A stretch of DNA of 64,000 nt from Candidatus Daviesbacteria bacterium RIFCSPHIGHO2_02_FULL_36_13 (GTDB taxonomy: Bacteria > Patescibacteriota > Microgenomatia > Daviesbacterales > UBA10151). Positions 4,147-53,769 of this stretch are shown here, piece after piece. Made by a program: the position numbers and the translations under genes. How positions within the stretch are numbered: position 1 is the first letter of the stretch; each line of letters opens with the position of its first letter. The notes beneath the pieces are model-generated. The model did not search any database and had not been told where the DNA came from. It worked only from the letters and a program-made list of their open reading frames with translations. The stretch is taken from the NCBI GenBank assembly GCA_001777015.1, contig MFCV01000044.1:16786-80785 (forward strand), given 5' to 3'.

Positions 4147-4888
4147 GAAAACGTAAATACCAGTTTAAAATATTAGTTCCCCAAAAAAGGGAGATTAAAC
4201 TAGCTAAAACTAAAAATGGACCAAATGGAATTACCTGACCAAACTTTTTCTTTTTTAAAATTATTAAGGCAACTGCAAAAATAGCTCCTGAAAAGAAAGA
4301 GAGCATAAGAGCCAGAATTCCATTTGGAAATCCCAGCCCAAGTCCTAAAAACATTCCCAACTTAACATCTCCGCCTCCCATGCCTTTGCCGCGGGTTATA
4401 ATTATTAAAATCAGAAAAAATCCTGCTATTACAAGTCCTGTTAGAAGAGAATCTAAAAAGTAATTATCAAAAATCATAAGATAAATAAGAGAAATTCCAA
4501 TTGATGGCAAGATTATAGAATCCGGAATAAGCATTTCTTTTAAATCTGTTAAGAAAATAATCCCTAAAATTGTTATGAAAAAGACATGAAAAATTAGACT
4601 TGGGGAAATTATTGGATTTAGGAAAAATAGCAGTCCTGTTAAAATTCCCATCCCAATTTCTACTAAAGGATACTCTATGCCAATTCTACTTTTGCAATAT
4701 CTACATTTCCCACCCAAAACAAAATAAGAAAGGATGGGTATAAGATCAAACCAAACCAGGGATTTTTTACACTTAGGACAATACGACCGCCCAGAAAAAG
4801 TTTCTTCTCTTAGGCTCCTATCAGCAAGAGCCTTAACAAGACTTCCTAAAATTGTACCTATCAAAAATCCAAAAAAGGCTGGAATCAT
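4136..4888 (-). CDS. pilD: Prepilin peptidase (A24 family, PilD)
   Basis: N-terminal CPKC...CRYC zinc-binding tetracysteine motif, polytopic membrane body, and the conserved GGGDVKL-like region. Lies next to pilC/pilT/pilB. Confidence 0.85.
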   Translation of the reverse strand: MIPAFFGFLIGTILGSLVKALADRSLREETFSGRSYCPKCKKSLVWFDLIPILSYFVLGGKCRYCKSRIGIEYPLVEIGMGILTGLLFFLNPIISPSLIFHVFFITILGIIFLTDLKEMLIPDSIILPSIGISLIYLMIFDNYFLDSLLTGLVIAGFFLILIIITRGKGMGGGDVKLGMFLGLGLGFPNGILALMLSFFSGAIFAVALIILKKKKFGQVIPFGPFLVLASLISLFWGTNILNWYLRFPNF

Positions 4889-6088
4889 TTATATTGATGT
4901 AGTGAGCTGATATATTGGCAATAGAATTGAGATTGCCAAAAATGCCACTCCCAGTCCTAAAACAACAAATATCAAAGGTTCTATAGCCACAGTTAAATTT
5001 TTAACCAGGTGATCTGATTCTGATTCAAAATATTGAGCCAGTTTAAAAAATATTTCATCAACTTTACCTGTTTCTTCTCCAACTTTAACCATTTGGCTAA
5101 CTATTTTTGGAAAATTTTCTTGAGTTAGAAGTAAAGATAAAGGCAGTCCTTTTTCAACTCCAGCATAAGCATCTTTTAAAGCACTTTTAAAAACTTTATT
5201 TTCAGTTAAAGAAGAGACTATGGCAATTGATTCCAAAAGGGGAATGCCAGCAGATATTAAAAGTCCAAAGGTTCTGGTGAAGTTTGTCAAAATTACAGAG
5301 GTGATTATTTTTCCAATAATAGGCAATTTTAAAAGCAGTTTTGAGACAAAATAACTTCCTTCTTCTGTTTTCATCCACTTATTTAAAGAAAGTCTTCCTG
5401 CAGTAATGATTATTAATCCTACCCACCAAAAGTTAATAAACAAGTTGGAAGAACCTATTAGAATTTTTGTTGGGAGAGGTAAGTCAATCGCTGATTCCTT
5501 ATATAAATCGGTTAATTTCGGGATAACAAATACCATCATAATAATAATGACCACTATCATAAGAGCGATAATAACCATAGGATAAATCATTGCTCCTTTT
5601 ATCCTGGCCTGAAATTCTCTTTCTTTTTCTAAATTATCCGCCATTTGAGTTAGCACCTGATCCAGCTTTCCTGATTCTTCACCGCTTTTAACTAAATTTA
5701 CATAAAGATTTGGGAAAATCTGAGGGTGCTTTCCTAAAGCTTGTGCCAGAGCCAATCCTCCTTTAACATCCTGGGAAATTTCAGATAAAGCCTTTTTTAA
5801 AACTTTATTTGTCTGTTGTTCTTCTAAGATATCTATAGCCTCTGATAAAACTAAACCACTGGAAATCATTGTAGCTAGTTGTCTTGTGATAACAACTAAG
5901 GTTGAAAAATTAATCCCGCTTGTAAATTTGGCTAGAAATCTGTTTATTGCTGGTTCTTTGTTATCAACTGAAATAACAATCAATCCTTTTTTTCTTAAGG
6001 TTGTTACAGCTGAGTGTGCATCATTGGCTTCAATAGTGCCTTTTTTTTCTTCACCATCAGGACTTTTAGCTAGGTATTTAAATTCCAT
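4889..6088 (-). CDS. pilC: Type IV pilus assembly platform protein PilC (GspF family)
   Basis: 399 aa with two repeated GspF-like domains and three TM segments (for example GKLDQVLTQMADNLEKE and GKVDEIFFKLAQYFESE repeats). Confidence 0.85.
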   Translation of the reverse strand: MEFKYLAKSPDGEEKKGTIEANDAHSAVTTLRKKGLIVISVDNKEPAINRFLAKFTSGINFSTLVVITRQLATMISSGLVLSEAIDILEEQQTNKVLKKALSEISQDVKGGLALAQALGKHPQIFPNLYVNLVKSGEESGKLDQVLTQMADNLEKEREFQARIKGAMIYPMVIIALMIVVIIIMMVFVIPKLTDLYKESAIDLPLPTKILIGSSNLFINFWWVGLIIITAGRLSLNKWMKTEEGSYFVSKLLLKLPIIGKIITSVILTNFTRTFGLLISAGIPLLESIAIVSSLTENKVFKSALKDAYAGVEKGLPLSLLLTQENFPKIVSQMVKVGEETGKVDEIFFKLAQYFESESDHLVKNLTVAIEPLIFVVLGLGVAFLAISILLPIYQLTTSI

Positions 6089-32064: not shown

Positions 32065-33752
32065 ATACTGCTAACTGAAGCAGATGGGACGGCTGTAGCA
32101 GATGGAGCAACAGAAGTTTGAACTGGTTTGGAGATAGGGCCAGCAGTTGGTTCAGCATCATCTGAAGCTCCAAAATCAAATCTCATACAAGCCCAGTCAA
32201 AAGAGTTAACCAACCCATCATCATTGAAATCTCCTGGCTTATCACCTCCTGATCCAACAATTCTCCACTCACGGAGTAATTCTGATGCATCAGCTGAATT
32301 AATTTTGCCGTCCCCGCCATCCAAAGGAAAGATGTCCCCAACAGGCAATTTTACATTTGAAAGAATAGTTGTTCCGCGACCTGCATTAAACTCAATGACT
32401 TTTCTAACACTCTTAGGAGCCTCTAAACTTACTTTATAGCCTTGTCCTTCTACCAGCTTGGTATTAGTCATACCTTGCACTAAGCCCTTCTTATCTATAG
32501 AAACTGTAGATCTTACAATCTGACCCTTATCTTTTCCTTCAGCCAATATTAAGCTGACAGCATTGACTACAGAAGTTTGAGGTGCACGGCAGAAAAGTTT
32601 AGTTCCCAAAGATAGCTGAGATAGGGAAGAGCAGCTTCCTTCAACAGATAGTCCTTTTTTATCAGTTATTTTGATCTGGAATACCTGATCAGTAGGCTGA
32701 CCGGAAAGTACAGCTATAATACGTCCATCATCCCATCTTTCTAATTTTAAGGTTTGTAAATTAACATCTCCCATTTCAACTTTTCCGGTTTCTGCTCCAA
32801 ATCCATTTCCAACTCCAGCTTTGGGTAGAATCTCAAAAGTAACTCTGTCTGCTTTTGAGGTATCAACACTACATGAAGCAATGGATGGAACTGAGATAAG
32901 TTCAATGGTGGCACTGCAAGCCTGGGTTTGGTTGGTGCCGCATCCGCCCCACTTACCAGCGATATCCTTAAACATGACAAACACAAAATTAGCCCCAATC
33001 TTTGGATTTTGGAAAGTATAAGAGGTTATAAGATTGCCGCTTGCATCAACTGTATATGGCAATTCAGGAGCCAAATTTAATCCTTCAACTGTCTCAGAAA
33101 TTTTATAGGAAACAGTACTTAGCCCAGGTGGTGTAGATTGTCTGGTAACTGTGACTCTGGCAATTACTGTCTGATGCGAGGTTCCCTGATATAGCTTAAA
33201 CTCATAACTACTTCCTGGTTCAATCCAGGGAGCAACTTCGGAACCACTTGGATTTTGCCAAACCGGTCCAATGTCCGAAGCTCCGTCAATTGATACATAT
33301 ACTTGTCCTGCTGAACCATCACCGGTATTCCAGGTAATAGTGGTTGAACTATTAGTTGTAGGGTTAGGAGCTGCAGAAATTTTGTTGGTAGTGGAACCTC
33401 CTGTAACAGTTACACTTACTGAGTGAAGTTTGCTGGAACCTGAACATAAATCAAAAATATAACCCTGGGCATCTATCCAATTGGCTGTATATGTGCCGGT
33501 TGGTACACTAGCAGGATTTACTCCTGTACAATCAGCTTCTCCAGACCTATGGGCACGTACTGATACATTAGAGGCATTAGAGGTAGACCAGGTAATTATT
33601 GTTCCACAGTGAGTGGCACCAGCTCCACCAATTCCTAAGATACAGGGATTAGGGGAGGCAGTAATTGTACCCGTTGCAGCAGCATATACAGGAGTTACAA
33701 GTGTTATTAAAAAACTTATATAAACAAACAAACTTAAAAATATTTTTTTCAT
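32061..33752 (-). CDS. Large secreted multi-domain surface protein with a C-terminal dockerin-like Ca-binding module
   Basis: Signal peptide MKKIFLSLFVYISFLITLVTPVYA, repeated Cys-containing beta domains, and C-terminal DGGDGKINSADASELL...DFNDDGLVNSFDW resembling the dockerin duplicated F-hand. The N-terminal domain is paralogous to the upstream gene. Confidence 0.55.
   Translation of the reverse strand: MKKIFLSLFVYISFLITLVTPVYAAATGTITASPNPCILGIGGAGATHCGTIITWSTSNASNVSVRAHRSGEADCTGVNPASVPTGTYTANWIDAQGYIFDLCSGSSKLHSVSVTVTGGSTTNKISAAPNPTTNSSTTITWNTGDGSAGQVYVSIDGASDIGPVWQNPSGSEVAPWIEPGSSYEFKLYQGTSHQTVIARVTVTRQSTPPGLSTVSYKISETVEGLNLAPELPYTVDASGNLITSYTFQNPKIGANFVFVMFKDIAGKWGGCGTNQTQACSATIELISVPSIASCSVDTSKADRVTFEILPKAGVGNGFGAETGKVEMGDVNLQTLKLERWDDGRIIAVLSGQPTDQVFQIKITDKKGLSVEGSCSSLSQLSLGTKLFCRAPQTSVVNAVSLILAEGKDKGQIVRSTVSIDKKGLVQGMTNTKLVEGQGYKVSLEAPKSVRKVIEFNAGRGTTILSNVKLPVGDIFPLDGGDGKINSADASELLREWRIVGSGGDKPGDFNDDGLVNSFDWACMRFDFGASDDAEPTAGPISKPVQTSVAPSATAVPSASVSSI
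33138..33220. repeat. 83-bp segment identical to 33757-33839 (direct repeat shared by the two adjacent paralogous surface-protein genes)
   Basis: TTGTCTGGTAACTGTGACTCTGGCAATTACTGTCTGATGCGAGGTTCCCTGATATAGCTTAAACTCATAACTACTTCCTGG occurs at both sites. The flanking sequence is only about 75% identical. Confidence 0.85.
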
Positions 33753-33753
33753 A

Positions 33754-34644
33754 TTATTGTCTGGTAACTGTGACTCTGGCAATTACTGTCTGATGCGAGG
33801 TTCCCTGATATAGCTTAAACTCATAACTACTTCCTGGATTAATCCAAGGTGCAACCTCAGTACCAGTTTTATTTTGCCAAACCAGGAAATCTGTAGCTCC
33901 ATCAATAGATACATATACTTGTCCATCACCTTTAGCATCCCAAGTAATAGTGGTTGAACCATTAGTTGTTGGGTTAGGGGAGGCAGAAATAGTACCAGTA
34001 GTACTACCAGAACCACCACCAGAAGCTACGCCTTGAACAAATACCTTTGCAAGATGTGTATTACCTACACAAAGATGAAACCAGTAGCCGATAGCATCTA
34101 TCCAATTGGCTGATTGCGGACCATTAGTAGCGTTCCAAACTAAACCTCCAGTACAAACATCGGCATCATTTCTGTCATACTTTACATCAGCAGTTCCAGT
34201 ATTTGTAGTAGACCAGTTAATAGTGGCTTTGCAGTGAGTTTCATCAGCCCCACCTCCAACAGTTCCTAAGGTACAAGTAGAGGCAGTAATGGTACCAGTA
34301 GCAGTTCCAGGAGCTGTTGTTGGAGCAGTGGTTGGTGCAGTTGTTGGAGCAGTAGTGGGAGCTGGAATAAGTCCAAAAGGGGAGACAAGTTGTAATCCTA
34401 CTTTAGGATTGCCGTCTTTATCTAAAGTAAAGTACTTTGTTCCATCTGTTTTATCCTTAACATTTTCTCCTGTAAATGTAATTGGAGGAGCAGCAGCTCT
34501 GGATCTAAAAATTTGCTGTTTTTGAACAAGGGAAATTATTAAAGGTAGAGCGGTAATTATTATGCCCATCCCCAGCAGGGAAATTATGTTCCTTTTATTG
34601 CTAAAAAAACTACGTAGTTCGTCCATGGATGGATATATATCCAT
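33754..34644 (-). CDS. Secreted surface protein paralog with an (APTT)n Pro/Thr linker
   Basis: N-terminal TM/signal, linker APTTAPTTAPTTAPTTAPG, and two domains homologous to the N-terminal domains of the 32061-33752 protein. Confidence 0.55.
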   Translation of the reverse strand: MDIYPSMDELRSFFSNKRNIISLLGMGIIITALPLIISLVQKQQIFRSRAAAPPITFTGENVKDKTDGTKYFTLDKDGNPKVGLQLVSPFGLIPAPTTAPTTAPTTAPTTAPGTATGTITASTCTLGTVGGGADETHCKATINWSTTNTGTADVKYDRNDADVCTGGLVWNATNGPQSANWIDAIGYWFHLCVGNTHLAKVFVQGVASGGGSGSTTGTISASPNPTTNGSTTITWDAKGDGQVYVSIDGATDFLVWQNKTGTEVAPWINPGSSYEFKLYQGTSHQTVIARVTVTRQ

Positions 34645-42368: not shown

Positions 42369-43424
42369 CTAGCTTCCGTCCTTCCACAACCAAACTTGAT
42401 TTTTAAGTTGTTGAGTTAATTTAAAGCTATTAGCATGACCTAAAAAGCCTAAGTATGACTGTAGAGATTGATTAAAAGTATCTGAGTTTATTTTTGTTTG
42501 TAGTTTCTTAAACATTCTCTTTCTTGTCCTGGTTCTGGGTAAAATATAATGAGGCAATATGACATACCCTAAAAAATCAATTCCTTGAGTATATTTTCTT
42601 ATCTTAATTTTGTTAGGATGCAAGGATAGTTCAAGACCATTTTTTAGAAATTCTTCTATCCTAGGTATTAAGTTCTCCAAATAATCCTTATCCCTTGATA
42701 AAACTACAAAATCATCTGCATAACGCACGTAGTATTTAACCCTTAACTTATGCTTCATAAACTGGTCAAGTTCATTCATGTAAATATTGGCAAAAATTTG
42801 GCTAGTCAGATTGCCAATTGGGATACTTTTTTCTTCAGAAAAGCTTTTTAGAATATTTTCTAAAAGCCAAATTAAGTCCTTATCGTATATCTTTTTTCTA
42901 ATAAGACTTAACAAAATATTGTGGTCAACACTTGCAAAAAACTTCCTTATATCAAGCTTTAAACAATAACATTCCCCCTTATAATTGTTACTAACTTTTC
43001 TAATAAAAACGTTTAATCTTTTAACTGCTCTATGAGTTCCTTTATTTACCCTACAGGAATATGAATCATAAATAAAACTTTTATCAAAAAGCGGTTCAAT
43101 TGCAGACACTATGGCGTGATGAACTATCCTATCTTCAACTGTAGCCTTATGAATATTGCGGAATTTAGGATCATAAATGTTAAATGCCATATAATAAGCA
43201 TGCATATAAGTTTTTGTTTTTAAGTTCTCAAATAAATTAAAAAGATTATCTTCTAAGTTCTTTTCGAAAATTTGTACATCTTTCCTTCGCCTCTTACCCA
43301 CTTTAAATCCATTCCAGGCTTGAAATAGGCTCTCAATTGATATAAGATTCGAATAATCGAATCTTGCGACTTTGTCTAAAGATCCCATTTCCTCTGCCTT
43401 TTCAAATATTTTAGAATTTTCCAT
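42369..43424 (-). CDS. Diversity-generating retroelement (DGR) reverse transcriptase
   Basis: RT motifs 1-7 including YVRYADDFVV and the DGR-specific motif-4 signature IGNLTSQ (PIGNLTSQIFANIYMNELD). About 350 aa with no maturase/endonuclease domain. Lies next to a TR/VR pair. The longer ORF start (MGISKLYAVCVCVCV) is an artefact of the (CA)11 repeat; the real start is taken as MENSKIF. Confidence 0.8.
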   Translation of the reverse strand: MENSKIFEKAEEMGSLDKVARFDYSNLISIESLFQAWNGFKVGKRRRKDVQIFEKNLEDNLFNLFENLKTKTYMHAYYMAFNIYDPKFRNIHKATVEDRIVHHAIVSAIEPLFDKSFIYDSYSCRVNKGTHRAVKRLNVFIRKVSNNYKGECYCLKLDIRKFFASVDHNILLSLIRKKIYDKDLIWLLENILKSFSEEKSIPIGNLTSQIFANIYMNELDQFMKHKLRVKYYVRYADDFVVLSRDKDYLENLIPRIEEFLKNGLELSLHPNKIKIRKYTQGIDFLGYVILPHYILPRTRTRKRMFKKLQTKINSDTFNQSLQSYLGFLGHANSFKLTQQLKNQVWLWKDGS

Positions 43425-43472
43425 ATGGATACAAATAAACAAAGTTTGCCAGATAAATCTAGTAAAGATATT

Positions 43473-43494
43473 CACACACACACACACACACACA
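43473..43494. repeat. (CA)11 dinucleotide microsatellite in the divergent region between the DGR RT and avd
   Basis: cacacacacacacacacacaca read directly from the sequence. Confidence 0.9.
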
Positions 43495-43500
43495 GCATAT

Positions 43501-43839
43501 AGTTTTGATATTCCCATTTTTCAAAAACTATATGATTTCTATTTGCTCTTATACCAAAGCTTAAAACTTTTTCCCAAAAAGGATCGTTTTACTCTTGGAC
43601 AGAAGATAGACAATCTTGCTTTAATAATTTTTGAGCAGGTTTTTGCAGCAGGAACAACTACACCAGATAGGAAATTACCTATACTAGAAAAATCTATTGC
43701 CTCTTTAGATCTTCTTAAGATACTAGTAAGGCTAGCCAAAGATATACAAGCTCTAGATAATAAAAAATATCTCCAGCTAGAGCAAGCCCTGCAAGAAATA
43801 GGCAGAATGCTTGGTGGCTGGAGAAAATCTTTAAAATGA
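43501..43839 (+). CDS. avd: DGR accessory variability determinant (Avd)-like four-helix-bundle protein; start codon unresolved
   Basis: LYDFYLLLYQSLKLFPKKDRFTLGQKIDNLALIIFEQV and the following helices match the Avd/23S-IVS four-helix-bundle pattern (FPKxERFxLxxQ). There is no in-frame ATG: candidates are ATT 43510, TTG 43543, or the long TTG ORF from 43372. It is on the strand opposite the RT and target. Confidence 0.5.
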   Translation, partial: SFDIPIFQKLYDFYLLLYQSLKLFPKKDRFTLGQKIDNLALIIFEQVFAAGTTTPDRKLPILEKSIASLDLLKILVRLAKDIQALDNKKYLQLEQALQEIGRMLGGWRKSLK

Positions 43840-43870
43840 GCAAGCTCTCTTTCAGATAACAAGACCCTAC

Positions 43871-43995
43871 CACGGAAGAACGCCCACCCAAGTTCGGATT
43901 GTGATTGTCAGACTTCAGATTCCAATTGACGTTCAAGTTGCCATTCGAATTGAAGTTCGCATTAACGACCTTACCATCGTTCCGAGACTCAAGCA
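43871..43995 (-). repeat. DGR template repeat (TR), 125 bp, adenine-rich on the minus strand (Asn AAC codons)
   Basis: 125-bp near-copy of 44388-44512. All 16 differences are at TR positions that are A on the minus strand (T on the plus strand). In the target frame the TR encodes NANFNSNGNLNVNWN. Confidence 0.8.
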
Positions 43996-44296
43996 TTATG
44001 TTGCTTTATGCCATCTTTCATCACTGTAGCTAGAACTATTTCTTACTACTGTATTTCATTTGGGAGTACCTGCAAAACAGGATCTCCGCCAGCATAAAAC
44101 AAGGAGTGTCTTGTTTTTCTTATTGTACGCTTCCAAAATCCTTAGATTTTAGAATTCTGACAAGTTGTTTGAAAAACAACAATTTCAGTATCCTGACAAC
44201 AATATTGTTAGGAGTATTAACCTACTTTCAAAGTAAATATAAGCATCTGCTTCGCATTTCGCAAGAGGGTATTTTAGCTCGTACTAGCAGAGCTTG

Positions 44297-44318
44297 CCTT
44301 TTTCCTTCGGAAAAACGT
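44297..44318 (-). promoter_or_regulatory. Hairpin CCTTTTTCCTTCGGAAAAACG (7-bp stem, 4-nt loop) about 50 nt downstream of the target stop; DGR-associated hairpin or terminator candidate
   Basis: Inverted repeat read from the sequence. A second perfect palindrome AAAAGCTTAAGCTTTT at 44364-44379 lies 9 nt beyond the VR end. Confidence 0.3.
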
Positions 44319-44369
44319 AAAAAAATTCGGAAAGTTCAAAGGGGCAAAAAAGAACAAAGAATCAAAAGC

Positions 44370-45170
44370 TTAAGCTTTTTTCACTCCCACGGAAGAACGC
44401 CCACCCAAGCTCGGATGGTGATCGTCAGACTTCAGATACCAATGGACGCCCAAGTAGCCATCCGAATAGAAGTCCGCATCAACGACCTCACCACCGAGCC
44501 GAGACTCAAGCAAACGAGACCAAGTAGAACCTTGATCAAAGTATTCACCTGTTAAAAGTTTGTGATCCTGTGAAGCAATAATATATTCTGTAGCTGTTAA
44601 ACCTTCTCTATTCGCTTTTTTAAGTTGATCCTTTAGTTGCTTCTCAGTCGTATCAAGATATGGGGCATTAGTAGTGGCTTCTGTGTATCTCCAACCAGAA
44701 TGATCTACTTCATTAGTTACGCTAGTATTTTCTGCAACAGAATGGCTTTGCATAGCAGGCCATATTTTACCTAAAAGATGTCTTGTAGCTTGTGTGGATA
44801 ATTCAGTAGGAACAAATATAGGTCTGTCTCCTCTTAAGATGTGTTCATTTAAATCTGCTTGGCTACCTTCAAAAGCAGGAACTGCGATATTAAGACCAAC
44901 TTGCTCTCCCCGAACTCTCCATTCTAACTGCCAACTTGAAGTTACAGCCTCAGGAGTATTTAATCTTCCAGCTCTAAATTCAGCCACAACTGAAGCCAAA
45001 GGATCTTGTTCAACCAATATTTGACCATTTTCAGTAAACCAACCTCTTGCATTACCTCTACCAGCTCGTTTCATCAGGTCTTTTAAACCCTCTGCTCTTT
45101 TAACATCACCAGCATTAACTGCTGCTCGTCTTTCTGCACCAAGAGCGTTTTGAATCACTTCGTGTGTCAT
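44370..45170 (-). CDS. DGR target (variable) protein; the C-terminal VR-encoded region is presumably a ligand-binding C-type-lectin/FGE-like fold
   Basis: The VR occupies codons about 219-260 with a short invariant tail GVKKA after it. No obvious signal peptide. The fold is inferred from the DGR paradigm and not seen directly. Confidence 0.7.
   Translation of the reverse strand: MTHEVIQNALGAERRAAVNAGDVKRAEGLKDLMKRAGRGNARGWFTENGQILVEQDPLASVVAEFRAGRLNTPEAVTSSWQLEWRVRGEQVGLNIAVPAFEGSQADLNEHILRGDRPIFVPTELSTQATRHLLGKIWPAMQSHSVAENTSVTNEVDHSGWRYTEATTNAPYLDTTEKQLKDQLKKANREGLTATEYIIASQDHKLLTGEYFDQGSTWSRLLESRLGGEVVDADFYSDGYLGVHWYLKSDDHHPSLGGRSSVGVKKA
44388..44512 (-). repeat. DGR variable repeat (VR) at the 3' end of the target gene
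   Basis: Encodes the C-terminal ~40 aa of the 266-aa target (SRLLESRLGGEVVDADFYSDGYLGVHWYLKSDDHHPSLGGRSSV). The 3' 22 nt, CTTGGGTGGGCGTTCTTCCGTG on the minus strand, are identical to the TR and GC-rich (IMH-like). Confidence 0.8.
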
Positions 45171-48431: not shown

Positions 48432-50708
48432 TCATATTGCCACAGGCTCAAGTCCCTTAACTTCACCCCTTGGCTTTATTGTAAATTGGTCTGCATGAGA
48501 CAGGGTATCAGAATTGGCAACTGGAAGAGTTATAGTCACAGTTGTTCCATGCCCCACTCCTTCTGAGGAAGCCTTTATTGTTCCATGCATAAGCTCTATT
48601 AAATTTTTGGAAATATATAACCCTAAACCAGTACCTCCGGAAACAGACAAAGCTGTATAAGAATTATCAAGCCTTGAGAATTTATGGAAGAGTTTAGATA
48701 AATCTTCTTTTGAAATTCCTACACCTGTATCTTTTATTGAAATTTCTACAGTTTTACCATCTGTAAAAAAGTCAAAAGTAATTTTTCCTTCCTGTGGGGT
48801 AAATTTTATGGAATTACCCACCAAATTAAGTAATACCTGACGCAGTTTATCCGGATCAGCAAAAACTTTGGGAACAGGTTTCTCCATTACCTCAAACTGA
48901 AATTTTTTATCTGTAGATTTTGAATAATAAACCTCATCAATAATATCACGAACTAAAGATAAAACATCAACAGGTTCAGGTTTAATCTCTATTTTACCTG
49001 ATTCAATCCTACTGATGTTGAGCATATCATTAACTAAATTTATCAGTCTTTGAGTAGAAATAAATACTCTGATTAGATATCTTTTTAGTTTATCTGACAA
49101 CGGCACATCAGACCTATTTAGAGCCATCCAGGCATAAGATCTTATAGCTGTCATAGGAGTACGCAATTCATGAGAGGCAATTGAGACAAAATCATCTTTT
49201 AGTTTATCTAAAACCTTCAGCTTTTCATTAGCATGTTTTAACTCTCTTGTTGCATCCTCTACCTCTTTAGTTAAAGTTATATTAAACTTTTGGATTTCTT
49301 CATATGATTTGGCATTTTGAAAAGCAATTGATGTTTCAAAAGCCATAGTGTTTAAAAAATTTATATCCTGAACGGTGTATGGATCTAGGGAGGTTTTTTC
49401 CCCAATAACTATAATCCCTATTATCTTATTATTTGTAACAAGTGGGATTATTAAAGACAATTCATTTTGATCCATAATAGTAGCCAATTGCCTAAGGCTA
49501 TTTTCCTTAAATCCAAAAACAGGTCCACTAGAAAGTTTCCTAATTTCTTCTAAATCTATAATTTTAGGGCTTTCAGGAAAATAAACAGATGTGAAGCTGT
49601 TAAAAATTTCCTCTATCTGATCTAGAGTTTTATTAAATCCCACAACTTTTTGCAAAAGATATTTATTTTTCCCATGGTCATATAAAAGTATTGCCATTTT
49701 TTTCAATTTAAAGACTTCAACTAATTGATCTATTAGGGTATCTATGAGCCTTTGCAAATCCAAACTTGTTGATAAACGTAAACCTAATTCTCTAACAACT
49801 TTCTGATAATCATACACAGACTGACCTAAAAAGTTTCTCGCTATAATTTTTGAAACTGAAGTAACTTTTTCAAAAATAAGGGTAAGTAGTGAGGATAAAA
49901 TTACAATTATTAACAAAACCCCCATTTTGAACTCCTGGCCTGTAAAAGTCCAATAAGAAATGGCTCCAATTAAAAACATTCCTGAGATAAGAAAGGTTGT
50001 TAGAGAAAATACTAAAACTTCCTGCAAAGCCACCCTTATATCCAAAAGCCTGTGTCTTGCTATAGAATAAGCTGTCATTCCAACAAAAGCTAAAGTAAAA
50101 ACAGCACTTAAGGAAAAGTACCTTGAAGTATGGAAAATAATCGGAATGAGTCCATCTAAAATAGCTGCAGCAATTCCAAAAATAGAAAGACCCAAGAACA
50201 TATACAGAAGCTGAAATTTAGCTTTTCCTGTGGCTTTTTTAAATTTTTTTACCAGATGATATATAGCAATCCCGAGCCCTGACACCGACCAAACCAAGCT
50301 TCCATACCAATAATATGGGCCAACAACAGTTTCAGGGCCTGTTGGAGTTTGATGTACGCTTGCAACAAAAAGATTTGTAAAAAGAATCATATATATTATT
50401 GGTATATTGAGGACTGAATAAATGAGGATCGCCCAACGGTTAGGTTTATCTCCATATGGAAATGCATATCCAAAAAAGAGCATTGCTCCAACCATTACAC
50501 AAACCAAAATATAAATAGCTTTTATCCAAAAAAGGCTATCAAATAAAAAGGGGTAATTATAGGGAATAAAAAGCATAGCCCAAATGCCCATCACAAAAGA
50601 GAGCCAGGCAAAAGAAAGGTTACTTAATGATTTACCATTTTTTCGGATAGGAACTACAGCTAAAATTAAACTGAGAATAGAAGCTGTAGCAATGAACAGA
50701 TTAGTCAC
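48432..50708 (-). CDS. Membrane sensor histidine kinase (multi-TM sensor + GAF-like + HisKA + HATPase_c)
   Basis: H-box SHELRTPMTAI, N-box LVGNSIKFT, and G-boxes DTGVGI and GTGLGLYISKNLIELMHG. N-terminal region has about 7 TM helices. Confidence 0.85.
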   Translation of the reverse strand: MTNLFIATASILSLILAVVPIRKNGKSLSNLSFAWLSFVMGIWAMLFIPYNYPFLFDSLFWIKAIYILVCVMVGAMLFFGYAFPYGDKPNRWAILIYSVLNIPIIYMILFTNLFVASVHQTPTGPETVVGPYYWYGSLVWSVSGLGIAIYHLVKKFKKATGKAKFQLLYMFLGLSIFGIAAAILDGLIPIIFHTSRYFSLSAVFTLAFVGMTAYSIARHRLLDIRVALQEVLVFSLTTFLISGMFLIGAISYWTFTGQEFKMGVLLIIVILSSLLTLIFEKVTSVSKIIARNFLGQSVYDYQKVVRELGLRLSTSLDLQRLIDTLIDQLVEVFKLKKMAILLYDHGKNKYLLQKVVGFNKTLDQIEEIFNSFTSVYFPESPKIIDLEEIRKLSSGPVFGFKENSLRQLATIMDQNELSLIIPLVTNNKIIGIIVIGEKTSLDPYTVQDINFLNTMAFETSIAFQNAKSYEEIQKFNITLTKEVEDATRELKHANEKLKVLDKLKDDFVSIASHELRTPMTAIRSYAWMALNRSDVPLSDKLKRYLIRVFISTQRLINLVNDMLNISRIESGKIEIKPEPVDVLSLVRDIIDEVYYSKSTDKKFQFEVMEKPVPKVFADPDKLRQVLLNLVGNSIKFTPQEGKITFDFFTDGKTVEISIKDTGVGISKEDLSKLFHKFSRLDNSYTALSVSGGTGLGLYISKNLIELMHGTIKASSEGVGHGTTVTITLPVANSDTLSHADQFTIKPRGEVKGLEPVAI

Positions 50709-50737
50709 TCTTTTAATGTACTACAGTTAGGGAGATT

Positions 50738-51580
50738 TTAAAACTTCTTGCCTCGCGTAATTACACCATAAGTACCTTTTGGCCAAACCTTAAATTCATC
50801 CACTACTTCAAAAGTTAAACCGGCTTTTGTATGCATCATATCTAACTCATCAAGTGTGGAATTATGTCCTAAACCAGCTTCAGCAAATTGATCAAATCTC
50901 TTAGTAACAGGAATATTCCTAATAGTATCAGCAATGCCCTTAAATCTACTTGGATGTCTTAGGGCTCTTACAGCATCCCCCATCATTATAAAAGGAACTA
51001 CTTTTTTAAAAGGCACACCAGTGAAAGTACTTAAAAGTAGCTCACCTCCAATGTTTAAAGCTTGGGCAGCCCTATTAATAACATATTCCTGCTCGCCCCT
51101 ACTTAAGTACTGAATAACAAAATTGGCTGTAGCCATTGAAAAGGAATCGCCTGGCAGCTGCCAGGGATCTTGAGTTAAATCCATTTGGCAAAGGGCAACT
51201 CTAGAACGCACATCTCTATGTTCACTTAATCTTTCTTGTGCTCGATCTAAAAAAGCCCTAGTTCCATCAACAGCTACAATGTGGGCTTTAGTTCCCGCCA
51301 GCAACGCCTCTGTTATTCTGCCATCCCCACAGCCCATATCCAAAGCATAAGATGGCTGTCCATCACTAACCCTTGGAATTGACCTTACTGCAACATCCTG
51401 AAATCTTCTCCAAAGATCTTGTGTGGTTGTAGTTCCTAATGTGCGGTGATATGTAGGAACATAGCTAGTCCAAAAAAGAGCACGTTCATCCTTTGGGATA
51501 CCTTCTAGTGTAAGATCATGTATAACAGGCTTCCCTATTCCCCTAGCCTCAAATAAACCTTCAACATTCCCAATAACCAT
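50738..51580 (-). CDS. Class I SAM-dependent methyltransferase
   Basis: Motif I LDMGCGDGRIT followed by an acidic residue. Confidence 0.6.
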   Translation of the reverse strand: MVIGNVEGLFEARGIGKPVIHDLTLEGIPKDERALFWTSYVPTYHRTLGTTTTQDLWRRFQDVAVRSIPRVSDGQPSYALDMGCGDGRITEALLAGTKAHIVAVDGTRAFLDRAQERLSEHRDVRSRVALCQMDLTQDPWQLPGDSFSMATANFVIQYLSRGEQEYVINRAAQALNIGGELLLSTFTGVPFKKVVPFIMMGDAVRALRHPSRFKGIADTIRNIPVTKRFDQFAEAGLGHNSTLDELDMMHTKAGLTFEVVDEFKVWPKGTYGVITRGKKF

Positions 51581-51619
51581 AAAACTGATATTAAGACTTT
51601 ATTTAATGAAATGCAAGTA

Positions 51620-51740
51620 TCACCTGGAGATTTTTTTGGAGTCAGACAGACAAAGGCTTGCTGTTGGCATAGCCAGAAGTCTACCTATTTCTATTTGTTT
51701 TTTGCACTTCTCACACTTTCCATAAGTGCCTTTGCAAATC
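51620..51740 (-). pseudogene. Fragment duplicating the 3' end (C4 zinc-finger) of the dksA/traR-like gene at 52515-52871
   Basis: The minus-strand translation KICKGTYGKCEKCKKQIEIGRLLAMPTASLCL parallels GKCENCGKQIEVGRLMAMPTASLCLSC of the intact gene and includes an identical 26-mer CTCACACTTTCCATAAGTGCCTTTGC. The fragment has an in-frame stop immediately upstream and no start codon. Confidence 0.4.
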
Positions 51741-51857
51741 TTCTAATTGCTCTTTTTCTGTTTGGTTTAGCCTCAGGCAATGGAGGATTAAAATATACTA
51801 TTGAGATCATTTCGGTTTCTTGACATATTGTCATATATATGCTATAATCAATTTACT

Positions 51858-52097
51858 ATGTTGATAAGAACTACTCTTAGAATAAAGGAAGACTTAAAAA
51901 AGAGTGCAGAGCAGAAAGCTTTGCAGGATGATGTGACCTTACAGGAAGTATTTAACCGCGCTCTTGAAGATTATCTTGAAAAAGATGCTAAAAAACAAGC
52001 TAAAAGAATAGTTTTTAAAACTCACGACTTAGGTGTCCCCCTTGATAACTTAACCAGAAAAGATTTTTATCCGGAACCTAAATTGGATGATTATTGA
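51858..52097 (+). CDS. vapB: Ribbon-helix-helix/CopG-like antitoxin (VapB-like)
   Basis: MLIRTTLRIKEDLKKSAEQKALQDDVTLQEVFNRALEDYL has the typical RHH antitoxin N-terminus. Overlaps the PIN gene by 11 bp. A TATAAT lies 8 nt upstream of the ATG. Confidence 0.55.
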   Translation: MLIRTTLRIKEDLKKSAEQKALQDDVTLQEVFNRALEDYLEKDAKKQAKRIVFKTHDLGVPLDNLTRKDFYPEPKLDDY

Positions 52098-52497
52098 TTC
52101 AAATATTTTAGTTTTTTCAATAAATAAACGCTCCCCTAAACACAAAAAAGCTCAAAAATTCTTACAAGAAAATTTGGGTAAATTGCAGGTTGCTCATCAG
52201 AATATTTTTGAAACACTGAGAGTTCTTACTTATCCCAAGTTCCCAAATCCCTTAAAAATAAAGGATGCAATAGAGGCAGTAGAACGTATTTTGAGAGTAT
52301 GCAGCATAGTTTCTCCAAACTGGAAAACAGAAAGCATTGCTCTAGAATTAATTAAAAAATACTCTCTTTCGTCTGATATGGTCTTTGATGCATACCTGGC
52401 GGCTACAGCCCTAAGTAATGATATAGACACTATTGCCACGGATAATGTAAAAGACTTCTCTAAATTTAAAGAAGTCACAATTATCAATCCTTTTTAA
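52087..52497 (+). CDS. vapC: PIN-domain ribonuclease toxin (VapC)
   Basis: MIIDSNILVF (first acidic residue), central acidic residues, and C-terminal ATDNVKDFSKF (PIN TxDxDF-like). Confidence 0.7.
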   Translation: MIIDSNILVFSINKRSPKHKKAQKFLQENLGKLQVAHQNIFETLRVLTYPKFPNPLKIKDAIEAVERILRVCSIVSPNWKTESIALELIKKYSLSSDMVFDAYLAATALSNDIDTIATDNVKDFSKFKEVTIINPF

Positions 52498-52514
52498 AAC
52501 GTTTAATCTAAATA

Positions 52515-52871
52515 TTATTTTTGGGCTTTGGAGCAGGATAAACAGAGACTGGCTGTAGGCATAGCCATCAATCTGCCAACTTCAATTTGCTTGCCGCAAT
52601 TCTCACACTTTCCATAAGTGCCTTTGCCAATTTTTGATAAAGCCAATTGAATATTTTTATTGGCCTTATTTAATTGTTCTCCTAGAGCCATAACCCTGGT
52701 GTGAGCATCAGCAATGTATGAATCAGTGCCTGGTTCTGAGGATTCTGCCAAAACTTCCTCTTTAGCAGGATCTTCTTTTTGTATTTCTTTTATTTCTTTT
52801 TCTACTTCTTTTTTTTGCTTGAGAAGCAAATCTTTAATAGATTTAATTGTTTTTGAAGGAAAATCTAACAT
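52515..52871 (-). CDS. DksA/TraR-family C4-type zinc-finger protein
   Basis: C-terminal CENCGKQIEVGRLMAMPTASLCLSC (CxxC-N17-CxxC) preceded by a coiled-coil region. Confidence 0.6.
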   Translation of the reverse strand: MLDFPSKTIKSIKDLLLKQKKEVEKEIKEIQKEDPAKEEVLAESSEPGTDSYIADAHTRVMALGEQLNKANKNIQLALSKIGKGTYGKCENCGKQIEVGRLMAMPTASLCLSCSKAQK

Positions 52872-53769
52872 TAAGCTTTTTTAACCCTTTCTTCATATTC
52901 CTTAATGTCCAGGAAAATGAGGTTTTCTGATTATACCAATATTTCGAAAACTTAGAAAGGGCATCTTTTCTGACTTCTGAACTGAAAATTAGGCTTTTAA
53001 TATAGTAAAGAGAAGATTTTATATCTGCTTCCAGCCTTCTTTTGGAAATTTTATAAAAAACAAATATTCCAATAATGGTTAGAGCTGTTGAGAATAGGAG
53101 CCCATCATAAGAATCTTTAAAAGGAGCAGTTAAGATATTTATCACTCCAATGTAAATTAAGGAAAAACTTAGTATTTTTCCCCTTTGATGAAAATGGATA
53201 GAGGCAGACCAAAGTTTTAAAAGAGTAAGAGTTAGCAAAAAAGCCTCCAAAAGTTGAATAGGCAATCTCCTACCAACTTCTCCAACCATATCAACAGCAA
53301 AGAATAAATCAGATGGAGCTCCAACATTACACCCTCCTAAAAAACACCCTAGACTAACAAAAATTAAACCAGTAATCAGCCCTATTGAGGCAATATCAGC
53401 ACTCATCCAAAAATCCATCTTCTTTTTTTTGGAAAAGAAGTAGAGACTGGCAAAACCCCCTATTAATGCTCCTACAAAGTTAAATCCTGGAATTTTATTA
53501 AAAAAGAAAATATCCAAAATATTTTCCGAAAATAAATCTAAATTGCTAAAGGCAAAATAAAACCTGGCACCAATTAACCCTCCTAAAAAGGTTAAAATTG
53601 TGAGATCCAAAACCTTTTCTTCATCCAAATCCCAGGCACGGGTGAGCCTCCAAATTAAAAAAACAGAAACAAAAAAACCTAAAGCCATTAAAACTCCAAA
53701 AGAAGAAATTGGAATCTTGCCAATAGTAAAAAGTACAGGAAACATAAACGTAAAGGAAAAGGGTAACAT
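52843..53769 (-). CDS. lgt: Prolipoprotein diacylglyceryl transferase
   Basis: N-terminal SSFGVLMALGFFVSVFL...GGLIGARFYF (Lgt signature G-x-x-x-GAR-x-x-Y) and a polytopic membrane body. Confidence 0.75.
   Translation of the reverse strand: MLPFSFTFMFPVLFTIGKIPISSFGVLMALGFFVSVFLIWRLTRAWDLDEEKVLDLTILTFLGGLIGARFYFAFSNLDLFSENILDIFFFNKIPGFNFVGALIGGFASLYFFSKKKKMDFWMSADIASIGLITGLIFVSLGCFLGGCNVGAPSDLFFAVDMVGEVGRRLPIQLLEAFLLTLTLLKLWSASIHFHQRGKILSFSLIYIGVINILTAPFKDSYDGLLFSTALTIIGIFVFYKISKRRLEADIKSSLYYIKSLIFSSEVRKDALSKFSKYWYNQKTSFSWTLRNMKKGLKKLNVRFSFKNN

Follow-up and report, generated by a model that had tools for sequence, protein, structure and literature searches.

The vapBC toxin-antitoxin cassette in the window analyzed here (the whole stretch of 64,000 nucleotides of Candidatus Daviesbacteria DNA) probably lies in a gene-end displacement scar left by recombination, in which DNA from another Daviesbacterium integrated at a DksA/TraR-family gene through a 28-nt homologous crossover and one illegitimate joint. 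This type of scar is already known; here it is unusually clear and is found more than once. It represents a rarely legible case of a small accessory module entering a reduced genome of the Candidate Phyla Radiation (CPR, the group that includes Daviesbacteria), with both junctions readable at the level of single bases. A conserved regulator gene can thus turn into a chimera of two lineages with its reading frame kept, and the mosaic history of such a live dksA-family gene would mislead single-gene phylogenies.

The intact gene (52515..52871, minus strand) encodes a zinc-finger protein of 118 aa that belongs to the DksA/TraR family, as the original prediction had it: the protein matches Pfam zf-dskA_traR (PF01258) with 46.8 bits (cutoff 24.9) and carries four Cys ligands (CxxC-x17-CxxC, reading CENC...CLSC). 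The NCBIfam DksA equivalog thresholds are missed (50.5 vs. 115.5 bits for TIGR02420 and 58.8 vs. 105 bits for NF033459), and the product should therefore be named a DksA/TraR-family protein and not DksA; its best partial NCBIfam match is to the yteA subfamily (72.2 bits, cutoff 134.4). The protein has 657 database homologs, most of them 119 aa long, and its end, SKAQK-stop, is atypical, the usual family ending being SKKxSK-stop. A terminator-like hairpin, with a 10-pair stem followed by UUUUACAUUA and a fold z-score of -2.4, sits inside the antisense 3′ end of vapC (52453..52476, minus strand) and is predicted to terminate transcription of the gene, which is referred to below as dksA.

The vapBC cassette is located between direct repeats of the dksA 3′ end (51635-51742 and 52527-52634), as predicted; these are 108 nt long, 79% identical and spaced by 892 bp. 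One of them terminates the intact gene, and the other is a start-less fragment of 40 codons. Aligned by codon, the copies agree at 85/111 positions (76.6%), in line with the ~75% over ~110 bp first estimated, whereas the identical run, given as a 26-mer, measures 28 nt (51708-51735 and 52600-52627). Only these two matches to the 28-nt block are found in the window at up to 3 mismatches, where shuffled sequences are expected to give 0, and a run of at least 28 nt has p = 0.004 when 26 mismatches are randomly placed in 111 nt. The block in the intact gene (52600..52627, minus strand, codons for GKGTYGKCE) is the proposed site of a homologous crossover, and the attached 3′ tail beyond it ("B1", 52515..52599, minus strand) is proposed to have come in with vapBC. 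The intact gene would accordingly be a chimera of a resident 5′ part and an imported 3′ tail.

The second copy is a displaced dksA 3′ end (51620..51742, minus strand), hereafter the remnant, which consists of 40 codons and a stop and reads KICKGTYGKCEKCKKQIEIGRLLAMPTASLCLSDSKKISR; it comprises the 28-nt block (51708-51735, minus strand) and then the old tail ("B2"). It lacks the entire N-terminal coiled-coil portion of the protein. An in-frame TAG is present at 51743-51745, and no ATG, GTG or TTG occurs between this codon and the finger, so that the upstream copy is startless and preceded by an in-frame stop, as had been proposed, and is not the expressed paralog with a valid start that had been named as the alternative. 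The finger was expected to be of the same CxxC...CxxC type, but it reads CEKC...CLSD, and its fourth ligand is Asp; this Cys-to-Asp variant occurs naturally in ~10% of homologs. The remnant peptide alone scores 39.7 bits against Pfam zf-dskA_traR (cutoff 24.9), and on a position-specific scoring matrix (PSSM) of the family alignment it reaches 130.7, compared with 131.1 for the live end, a score attained in 0/20,000 simulations of neutral decay. The zinc-finger fragment is a pseudogene. An assembly artefact was considered and rejected, as the same arrangement recurs in 10/10 of the places shown among 23 contigs assembled independently in ENA, JGI and Logan; the other contigs are classed as similar places.

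The divergence between the two tails is unevenly distributed. Outside the block, the copies share 72% of nucleotides and 48% of third positions (pS 0.59), which is the level of divergence found between different genera. Within nt 0-33, i.e., across the codons that the block touches, 10/11 third positions are identical, compared with 48% in the rest, and the synonymous sites of this region do vary among relatives. Substitutions between the two gene ends are mostly synonymous (dN/dS ~0.13, dS ~1.2). This low ratio, together with a remnant PSSM score near that of the live end and the outcome of the decay simulations, indicates that the difference between the tails arose under purifying selection. 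Read from these alignments, the two ends are diverged alleles that meet at an identical 28-nt putative crossover block and not duplicates of one host sequence, contrary to the duplicated ends of a single host gene that had been envisaged. The original prediction had left the choice between insertion into the dksA-like gene and recombination at it; recombination with a pseudogene remnant is the alternative supported, and target duplication with subsequent decay is contradicted by the dN/dS of 0.13.

Comparison with relatives bears on the origin of the attached tail, which looks foreign in that it matches the dksA 3′ end of L016 with 90% identity over 102 nt, whereas the 5′ parts are only 70-72% identical. 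This mosaic signal is suggestive only (permutation p = 0.011); the finger region is generally better conserved, and L011 shows a similar 5′/3′ contrast, both of which count against it. When nucleotide and third-position identities to L012, L015, L016, L011, L033 and L034 are compared, the remnant is nearest to L015 and the attached tail to L016, which is the direction expected, but the differences are not significant at lengths of 75-110 nt.

Part of a third gene is likewise present in the inserted segment, which refines the original prediction. Residues ~48-70 of a family of 110-aa membrane proteins were found by tblastn at 51727..51795 (plus strand), where AFANLLIALFLFGLASGNGGL aligns with AFINYVVALYLLGLASGKGGL of L027 at 14/21 positions and with L015 at 15/23, and the nucleotide alignment agrees with this match. 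L015 has a complete 110-aa membrane-protein gene immediately after dksA and convergent to it. The homology to dksA and the homology to the 110-aa family overlap only within 51727..51745, which defines an illegitimate junction between the antisense edge of the dksA block and the membrane-gene fragment, with a microhomology of ~13 nt (GCCTTTGCAAAT). The 24 nt between this fragment and the vapBC promoter (51796..51819) have no homology in any fetched locus. Two candidate matches for the spacer were rejected. Its apparent similarity to the tail of a 92-aa gene is due to the palindromic TTTGCAAA and has no counterpart at the protein level. The second match, to a 169-aa cupredoxin-like gene of L016 (47 nt, 79%), is weaker than that to the 110-aa family, has the wrong relative orientation and probably arose by chance. 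The tail of the 92-aa gene is the usual left neighbor of the cassette.

The cassette itself has the appearance of a functional type II toxin-antitoxin module: the PIN toxin retains all four acidic residues, the antitoxin gene overlaps the toxin gene, and a likely palindromic operator accompanies the consensus promoter. The pair is predicted to be active. The toxin gene, vapC (52087..52497, plus strand), is convergent with dksA, with stop codons 17 nt apart, and encodes a PIN-domain protein of 136 aa (Pfam PIN PF01850, 52.2 bits vs. a cutoff of 23.6) in which D4, E42, D101 and D119 each show a conservation of at least 98% across 120 homologs. Its score against TIGR00028, the curated VapC family of NCBIfam, is 67.8 bits, under the cutoff of 73.6, and distant plasmid homologs (28-34% identity) carry the VapC annotation; the predicted toxin is VapC-like by domain, just below the curated cutoff. 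The putative antitoxin gene "vapB" (51858..52097, plus strand, 79 aa) overlaps vapC by 11 nt and accompanies it in every related locus examined. Searches of Pfam, NCBIfam, PADLOC and PDB (sequence or profile) gave no assignment for its product; the best PDB profile match, to a CopG RHH protein, is weak (E = 0.86), the single-sequence AF2 model is poor (pLDDT 66), and the N-terminus appears RHH-like as judged by eye only. The vapBC promoter (51820..51848, plus strand) combines TTGACA, 17 nt and TATAAT, a 12/12 match to the sigma-70 consensus, and overlaps a palindrome, TGACATATTGTCA (51821-51833), that is likely the operator. Promoter and palindrome are conserved in 7 loci, among which homology begins exactly at the -35 element and stops at the vapC stop codon, so that the promoter forms the left edge of the cassette.

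A comparison with relatives lacking vapBC had been suggested originally, in the expectation of a single uninterrupted dksA-like gene at this site, and one uninterrupted dksA indeed follows lgt in L012, L011, L015, L033 and L034, all without vapBC. The gene order is lgt-dksA-MTase-HK758-RR-RluA in L012 and lgt-dksA-HK, with a 13-nt gap, in L033. The nearest dksA among the sampled genomes is 77% identical, and the cluster that holds the intact protein has a single member; no exact empty site was found among the sampled genomes, none of which comes closer than this 77% DksA identity. Downstream of the remnant lies a class I SAM methyltransferase gene (50738..51580, minus strand, 280 aa; Pfam Methyltransf_25/12/11), the start of which is 39 nt away, compared with a dksA-MTase gap of 43 nt in L012. 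A search for its homologs at E < 1e-20 among 5.8 billion proteins returned only itself, and in the absence of such a homolog it led to no closer relative. It is 24% identical to the MTase in the same position in L012, whereas the flanking genes are 53-84% identical. As the adjoining methyltransferase is an orphan, no orthologs support the remnant as the resident end, which counts against the preferred explanation.

In other members of the Daviesbacteria, vapBC is usually found upstream of the same HK-RR-RluA genes. The cassette is thus not new to the dksA-to-HK neighborhood, and, since it is a long-standing resident of this interval in related genomes, a local rearrangement rather than an import from afar is possible. 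The interval from dksA to HK-RR-RluA behaves as an integration hotspot. The layout expected of a donor, with dksA convergent to vapBC and no remnant, was absent from a metagenome scan and from the contigs of the VapC homologs P0122, P0123, P0126, P0136, P0137 and P0138; the contexts met instead were 92aa-vapBC-HK450, polyprenyl synthase/108aa-vapBC, 399aa-vapBC-folA and, in L020 of the metagenome scan, groEL.

The analysis shows the anatomy of the locus, how divergence is distributed along the repeat, the empty sites of relatives and the fusion to a gene fragment; the sequence of events, the foreign side and the circular or linear form of the intermediate are inferred. The ancestor would have carried lgt-dksA directly before the methyltransferase and HK-RR-RluA genes, and the donor would have been another Daviesbacterium, in which a small membrane-protein gene ran convergent to dksA and contained the vapBC cassette. 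One joint would be a homologous crossover in the 28-nt dksA stretch that was identical in both genomes, and the other a microhomology-mediated, illegitimate connection of the membrane-gene fragment to the antisense edge of the same stretch. The imported segment would comprise the new dksA tail, vapBC and the membrane-gene fragment. It could have entered as a small circle of ~0.9 kb by single-crossover integration or, equally, as a linear fragment via homology-facilitated illegitimate recombination (HFIR), which gives the same product. Either route would leave dksA intact with the donor tail, followed by vapBC and the membrane-gene fragment, and the resident tail, headed by the second copy of the block, would remain silent in front of the methyltransferase gene. 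A crossover within 28 nt is at the lower limit for RecA-type recombination, which counts against this scheme, and we know of no experimental demonstration of HFIR in the CPR.

The polarity of the event may also be reversed, such that dksA, vapBC and the membrane-gene fragment are the residents and the methyltransferase came with a donor dksA tail, in an adjacency of the L012 type, by HFIR anchored in the kinase gene with an illegitimate joint in the membrane-protein gene. The orphan state of the methyltransferase and its low identity to the gene in the L012 slot fit such an origin, as does the spacing between remnant and methyltransferase, which mimics that of L012. L015, the closest relative on the lgt side, has a membrane-protein gene convergent to dksA, as the resident in this model would, and the microhomology joint is equally accounted for. 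What such a reversal leaves unexplained is the identity of the first 28 nt of the imported fragment to the resident dksA, with 10/11 synonymous positions in nt 0-33, compared with 72% elsewhere (p ~0.004-0.006); it would require a later short conversion tract exactly at the edge of the fragment. Furthermore, the atypical end and the 90% match to a foreign contig belong to the attached tail and not to the remnant. Taken together, this makes the reversed polarity an unlikely possibility, and the entry of vapBC with a new dksA tail remains the preferred reading.

Other origins of the repeat are less probable still. The locus might be what is left of an element that integrated site-specifically, comparable to e14 in icd or to a cis-mobilizable element, whose integrase acted at a 28-bp att core in the dksA 3′ end and which gave a substitute tail and later lost all but vapBC. 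Identical core repeats do flank the insert, and an intact target with a substitute tail, with the displaced pseudogene tail at the far end, is the icd/icdC layout at e14, as far as the available part of the source goes (PMC13626634). This origin is nevertheless very unlikely: no integrase is found in or beside the 892-bp unit, nor in L020, L027 or L017; the loci share no att site, the repeats elsewhere being a groEL end, the end of the 92-aa gene and a kinase 5′ end; at the far junction, a truncated unrelated gene is joined through microhomology, as is typical of illegitimate recombination; and relatives of VapC are absent from the viral contigs and phage records searched. An in-situ duplication, in which vapBC inserted with a target duplication of ~110 bp and the unused copy decayed, would accord with direct repeats of >30 bp around a small addiction-type module with no mobility gene, the published signature of such insertions (PMC2853133), and the perfect 20-nt repeat in L020 could be one. 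Decay, however, predicts a dN/dS of at least 0.5 with stops or frameshifts, whereas 0.13 is seen and no stop occurs in 40 codons, the family score of the remnant equals that of the live copy and was matched in 0/20,000 simulations, and synonymous divergence is near saturation outside the block and approximately zero inside it (0 mismatches/28 nt). As published repeats of this kind are nearly identical (PMC2853133), the duplication model is highly improbable. It is hardly credible that the remnant is an expressed small paralog or regulatory element, such as a mini zinc-finger peptide, or a template or variable repeat of a nearby diversity-generating retroelement. The 40-codon frame is open and scores above the Pfam cutoff, and automated gene calls place a 47-aa ORF over the junction, but this ORF is in another frame, has no family match and is a spurious annotation, and the remnant has neither a start codon before its finger nor the N-terminal coiled-coil part. 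A retroelement with its own repeats does lie 7 kb off, but the reverse-transcriptase ORF, 8 kb off, has its own repeat pair, and the mismatches are not adenine-specific (A in the remnant at 13/26, in the intact copy at 3/26).

The same vapBC family is flanked by duplicated gene ends elsewhere. In L020, the groEL end is repeated perfectly over 20 nt around vapBC; L027 has three copies of the end of the 92-aa gene, of which copies 2 and 3 share 21 identical nt; and L017 has a 76-nt repeat of the 5′ end of a histidine kinase gene, fused to a remnant of the 92-aa gene. These repeats are unrelated in sequence. Similar scars at three other loci suggest that the process is common enough for systematic study. 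CPR bacteria have few classical mobile elements. One could speculate, although this is decidedly doubtful, that this vapBC family is a minimal mobile cassette, extending from promoter to stop codon, that spreads among the CPR, guided by homology at the ends of conserved genes and bringing a replacement end each time. If true, it would be the toxin-antitoxin counterpart of Rhs tip displacement, and a single recurring process, not a set of independent accidents, would have left the four scars at dksA, groEL, the 92-aa gene and the kinase gene. On the same doubtful reading, the operator palindrome, which read from the other strand contains a hexamer resembling a -35 element (51834-51806), might bring the downstream methyltransferase-kinase operon under VapB control upon insertion.

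Several known systems resemble the present locus in part. Nobusato et al. reportedly described in 2000 the insertion of restriction-modification (RM) genes with long target duplication. As in RM insertions, direct repeats of >30 bp that align with a single sequence of the empty genome surround a small module here, which is of a selfish or addiction type and has no mobility genes. The RM repeats are near-identical, e.g., 44/46 or 417/423, with published cases at 94-100%, and bacteria with natural competence show an enrichment of this pattern (Furuta et al. 2010, PMC2853133). The repeats of the present locus, in contrast, are diverged alleles (72% outside the 28-nt block) and not a true duplication.

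Hill et al. are said to have described, in 1989, prophage e14 in icd of E. coli K-12, with the icdC pseudogene. According to the available part of a further source, the e14 insertion supplies a substitute 3′ end that keeps icd intact (PMC13626634), and the inserted DNA likewise gives dksA a substitute 3′ end with the target gene left intact. Unlike the 0.9-kb segment studied here, which has no recombinase, prophage e14 measures 15 kb, encodes a site-specific integrase and occupies a fixed att site, whereas the related inserts of the vapBC family are found at unrelated sites, and at one junction of the present locus a third gene is joined through microhomology. In Vibrio cholerae, HFIR has been linked to the displacement of T6SS effector-immunity modules in the available parts of two reports (PMC3240628, PMC5361080), and, to the extent these parts cover it, one homologous anchor is combined with one illegitimate microhomology joint and remnants of displaced genes are left, as in the present case. 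Unlike in V. cholerae, both joints lie within a single 28-nt stretch, for which a circular intermediate is the simpler explanation.

The C-terminal displacement of Rhs proteins, and also of CdiA and MafB, is a further close parallel. In the proposed model, a circle of a core fragment, a tip and intervening genes integrates by homology (Jackson et al. 2009, PMC2935791). The differences are that the gene targeted here encodes a small regulator of the housekeeping type (at the other loci, groEL, a 92-aa gene or a kinase gene is the target) and not a polymorphic toxin, that the tails are homologous alleles of the same function rather than alternative toxin domains, that the cargo is a type II toxin-antitoxin pair and not an immunity gene, and that the shared core is only 28 nt long. 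As in Rhs, however, an intact gene is followed by cargo and then by a dissociated fragment in the same orientation, made up of a short conserved piece and an alternative tail; attached and dissociated copies have the conserved piece in identical form, whereas the tails differ and are evolutionarily old; and L027 even has a string of three tips. The published Rhs displacement model (PMC2935791) predicts the layout seen at this locus, which counts in favor of gene-end displacement.

The vapBC cassette of the window lies in a real scar, at which the end of a dksA-family gene was probably displaced by recombination between diverged genomes, with the toxin-antitoxin pair as cargo. The intact gene, a zf-dskA_traR gene of 118 aa on the minus strand (52515-52871), is flanked by lgt (52843-53769, minus) and is convergent with a PIN-domain gene, vapC (52087-52497, plus), 17 nt away. 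vapC overlaps by 11 nt a 79-aa ORF that is the putative vapB (51858-52097, plus), and the gene for a class I methyltransferase (50738-51580, minus) lies on the far side. As originally predicted, the pair sits between direct repeats, one of which is the 3′ end of the intact gene; the copies (51635-51742 and 52527-52634) span 108 nt, are 79% identical and are spaced by 892 bp. An identical run was also predicted and exists, at a length of 28 nt instead of 26 nt (51708-51735 and 52600-52627), and no third match to this block with up to 3 mismatches occurs in the 64 kb, nor is one expected by chance. Read on the minus strand, the upstream copy gives KICKGTYGKCEKCKKQIEIGRLLAMPTASLCLSDSKKISR and then a stop, and the prediction of an in-frame stop and a missing start codon is confirmed by a TAG just ahead with no start. 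In this displaced end (51620-51742, minus) the 28-nt block is followed by what is here called tail B2; the end now attached to the intact gene, past its own copy of the block, is tail B1. The claim that the displaced copy encodes the same CxxC...CxxC finger fails at the fourth zinc ligand, which is Asp and not Cys; CLSDS is a natural variant found in about one tenth of the dksA family. The same arrangement is seen in all 10 of the places displayed, from 23 contigs read from independent assemblies, and an assembly artefact is therefore ruled out.

The two copies differ in a mosaic pattern. After the first 33 nt the identity between them is 72%, and 48% at third codon positions, which is the level of divergence seen between the window and the dksA genes of other genera (third-position identity 32-68%). 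Over the first 33 nt identity is 94%, with 10 of 11 third positions matching. At the synonymous sites of this stretch four relatives (L011, L012, L015, L016) differ from both copies and among themselves, and a run of at least 28 identical bases is improbable given the mismatch density (p = 0.004). Protein conservation thus does not account for the block, which bears the signature of a homologous crossover.

Across 37 aligned codons, the copies show 26 nucleotide differences, 15 at third and 3 at second positions, and 7 amino-acid changes (pS = 0.59, pN = 0.14, dN/dS about 0.13), where drift of one copy since duplication would be expected to yield a dN/dS of at least 0.5 plus stop codons. On a position-specific scoring matrix built from 119 homologues, the fragment scores 130.7 against 131.1 for the live end, a score reached by none of 20,000 decay simulations using 13 or 26 random substitutions, and its 40-residue peptide by itself exceeds the Pfam gathering threshold (39.7 bits). 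The fragment is rejected as a decayed duplicate. Its identity reaches 88% with other members of the family but is just 75% with the neighbouring intact gene; at the differing sites the fragment usually carries the common residue of the family (CEKC, RLLAMP, SKKxS) and the live gene a rarer one (CENC, RLMAMP, SKAQK). Both tails were therefore shaped as parts of working genes in separate lineages, and the fragment, most likely inert now, was severed only recently.

The homology to dksA ends within about 10 nt of the 5′ edge of the block. On the opposite strand, positions 51727-51795 encode AFANLLIALFLFGLASGNGGL, a peptide that aligns with residues 48-70 of a family of membrane proteins of 110 aa (14/21 to L027, 15/23 to L015), a match backed by nucleotide alignment. 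The two homologies overlap by about 13 nt, GCCTTTGCAAAT (compare GGGCTTTTGTAAAT in L029), and this overlap forms a microhomology joint. A 47-aa ORF placed here by gene callers crosses the junction in a third frame, has no family match and is best treated as a spurious call. On the lgt side the nearest of the sampled relatives is L015 (NTP-transferase 90%, Lgt 62%, DksA 77%), in which the complete gene of this membrane-protein family, of 112 aa, is convergent to dksA and overlaps its stop codon.

The cassette itself is sharply delimited, as homology among seven loci starts exactly at the -35 hexamer and stops at the vapC stop codon, and the unit therefore consists of promoter/operator, vapB and vapC. 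The PIN domain of VapC scores above threshold with D4, E42, D101 and D119 conserved, the promoter matches the sigma-70 consensus perfectly and the palindrome TGACATATTGTCA is kept across loci; together with the overlap of the antitoxin and toxin genes, these features make vapBC look functional. Searches of Pfam, NCBIfam and PDB assigned no fold to the 79-aa antitoxin. Homologues of VapC at 60-85% identity number more than 600, the nearest of which (82-85%) are in L023 and L026, loci whose kinase and RluA share just 50-59% with those of the window. The usual context is 269aa-92aa-vapB-vapC-HK450-RR-RluA (HK, histidine kinase; RR, response regulator), although other contexts also occur, and L011 is an empty version of the 92aa-vapB-vapC-HK450 site. 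A minus-strand hairpin with a U-tract inside the vapC end may serve as the dksA terminator. At 51834-51806 a weak promoter-like site on the minus strand overlaps the predicted operator; speculatively, transcripts from it could run across the fragment and on into the methyltransferase-kinase genes.

The expectation that relatives without vapBC carry a single complete dksA after lgt is borne out in L011, L012, L015, L033 and L034. The genes that follow lgt-dksA are a methyltransferase (MTase286), HK758, RR, RluA and NhaP in L012; a kinase gene just 13 nt away in L033, which comes from the same aquifer and has a kinase domain 83% identical; ThiF, a 327-aa gene and a kinase in L034; EamA and, further on, 92aa, HK450, RR and RluA in L011; and the 112-aa gene (minus), MTase239 and Sua5 in L015. 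The interval from dksA to HK-RR-RluA is therefore hypervariable, and behaves as an integration hotspot. Compared with positions 48432-52871 of the window, each of the five relatives has a different gene set there, with a content ranging from nothing (the 13 nt of L033) to four genes. For the methyltransferase of the window (280 aa, class I), 5.8 billion proteins yielded no homologue below E = 1e-20, and its identity to the L012 gene at the corresponding place is 24%, where flanking genes share 53-84%. The gene starts 39 nt from the fragment, as compared with 43 nt between dksA and the methyltransferase in L012, and the bases right before its ATG are common to both. In the defence library it matches a single entry, at the methyltransferase portion of the MADS component mad2 (E = 5.6e-15).

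Some further features were observed in these sequences. At 401-910 of L016, dksA is cut to 114 aa, ending in CLSCKV, and overlaps a convergent gene whose 169-aa product is a secreted cupredoxin-like protein, another differing occupant just after dksA. L002 (1-6357, contig k141_2023229) carries dksA, lgt, NTP-transferase and EF-P followed by their mirror image about position 3108, probably a palindromic artefact of the public assembly. The window holds a probable diversity-generating retroelement (42369-45170), with a reverse-transcriptase-like ORF bearing a YADD motif (42369-43517, minus), an Avd-like ORF on the plus strand and a pair of 129-nt repeats, 87% identical; the copy at 43867-43995 is Asn-rich (NDGKVVNANFNSNGNLNVNWNL) and template-like, that at 44384-44512 is the variable-repeat-like 3′ end of a 266-aa gene, and at most of the differing positions the former has Asn where the latter has another residue. 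At 760-897 a 30-nt unit (ATAAGGGTGAAACCCTTTGAAGCTCTGCTT) occurs four times in tandem, overlapping the start of an ORF (222-881, minus). Collinear repeat blocks (33137-33487 and 33756-34112; 72-92% identical, about 619 bp apart) link a 573-aa and an adjacent 296-aa ORF and probably represent either paralogues in tandem or a domain repeated internally.

Similar scars surround other members of this cassette family, the scar of the window being one of several. L020 shows the architecture of the window at another housekeeping gene, where a perfect direct repeat of 20 nt (3002-3021 and 4240-4259), the last six codons and stop of groEL (GGMPEY), flanks a vapBC homologue and a 118-aa ORF, one copy lying 9 nt ahead of the -35 element and the other, past vapC and the 118-aa ORF, being the true groEL end. 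L027 has three copies of the 3′ end of the conserved 92-aa gene (3806-3834, 4711-4739, 5972-6000) in a region with two PIN-type toxin-antitoxin pairs, a Ham1-like fragment and a CYTH gene. The true gene end precedes another RHH/PIN pair, the second copy abuts the vapB promoter and the third, sharing 21 identical nt with the second, follows vapC and the Ham1-like fragment, which looks like serial displacement of gene ends. L017 has a 76-nt repeat of 72% identity (2229-2304 and 3052-3127) that spans the histidine kinase promoter and first 14 codons, and an in-frame fusion joins its upstream copy to the final 28 codons of the 92-aa gene, giving a 41-aa chimeric ORF just before vapB. The repeats of these three loci are mutually unrelated, and no integrase is found near the cassette at any of them.

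A single event with two joints would account for all of the features of the window. A donor segment from another Daviesbacterium would have comprised tail B1, 17 nt, vapC, vapB, the promoter, 24 nt and membrane-gene residues 70-48; one joint would be a homologous crossover in the 28-nt block of the resident dksA, and the other a microhomology joint of the membrane-gene end to the antisense edge of the block. The segment might close at the microhomology as an 892-bp circle and enter by a single crossover in the block, producing exactly the present order of methyltransferase, B2, block, membrane-gene fragment, vapBC, B1, block and dksA 5′ part; a linear route by homology-facilitated illegitimate recombination would give the same product. 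The hypothetical donor layout is that of an L015-type genome in which a vapBC cassette had landed in the 3′ part of the 112-aa gene, so that a truncated membrane-protein gene and then vapBC would lie convergent with dksA.

We consider this general two-joint model likely, and, should it hold, the polarity described for it moderately probable. The attached tail is closest to the dksA tail of L016, with 90% identity over 102 nt, where the 5′ part of the L016 gene is at only about 70% (permutation p = 0.011); L011 shows a similar 5′/3′ contrast. The match to L016 and the atypical C-terminal end of the attached tail hint that it is the imported one. In the main rival the polarity is reversed, and the methyltransferase and tail B2 were brought in by a kinase-anchored event, which accounts for the orphan methyltransferase but leaves the identical block unexplained. 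The original prediction of recombination at the dksA-like gene, with a pseudogene remnant left behind, was essentially right.

None of the papers searched ties vapBC to such flanking repeats; likenesses come from other systems. The “insertion with long target duplication” of restriction-modification genes is like the window in its repeat length and its lack of mobility genes, but its repeats are near-identical duplicates (PMC2853133), and those of the window, when tested, are not. The icd/icdC pair around prophage e14 has the same layout (PMC13626634), although that case needs an integrase together with a fixed att site, and here neither is found. The closest match in layout and proposed mechanism is Rhs C-terminal displacement, in which a new tip arrives on an episomal circle, along with a core fragment and intervening genes; recombination of the circle with the chromosomal core moves the old tip downstream and leaves it silent (PMC2935791). 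The scar is a clean, well-resolved instance of an already known type of displacement.
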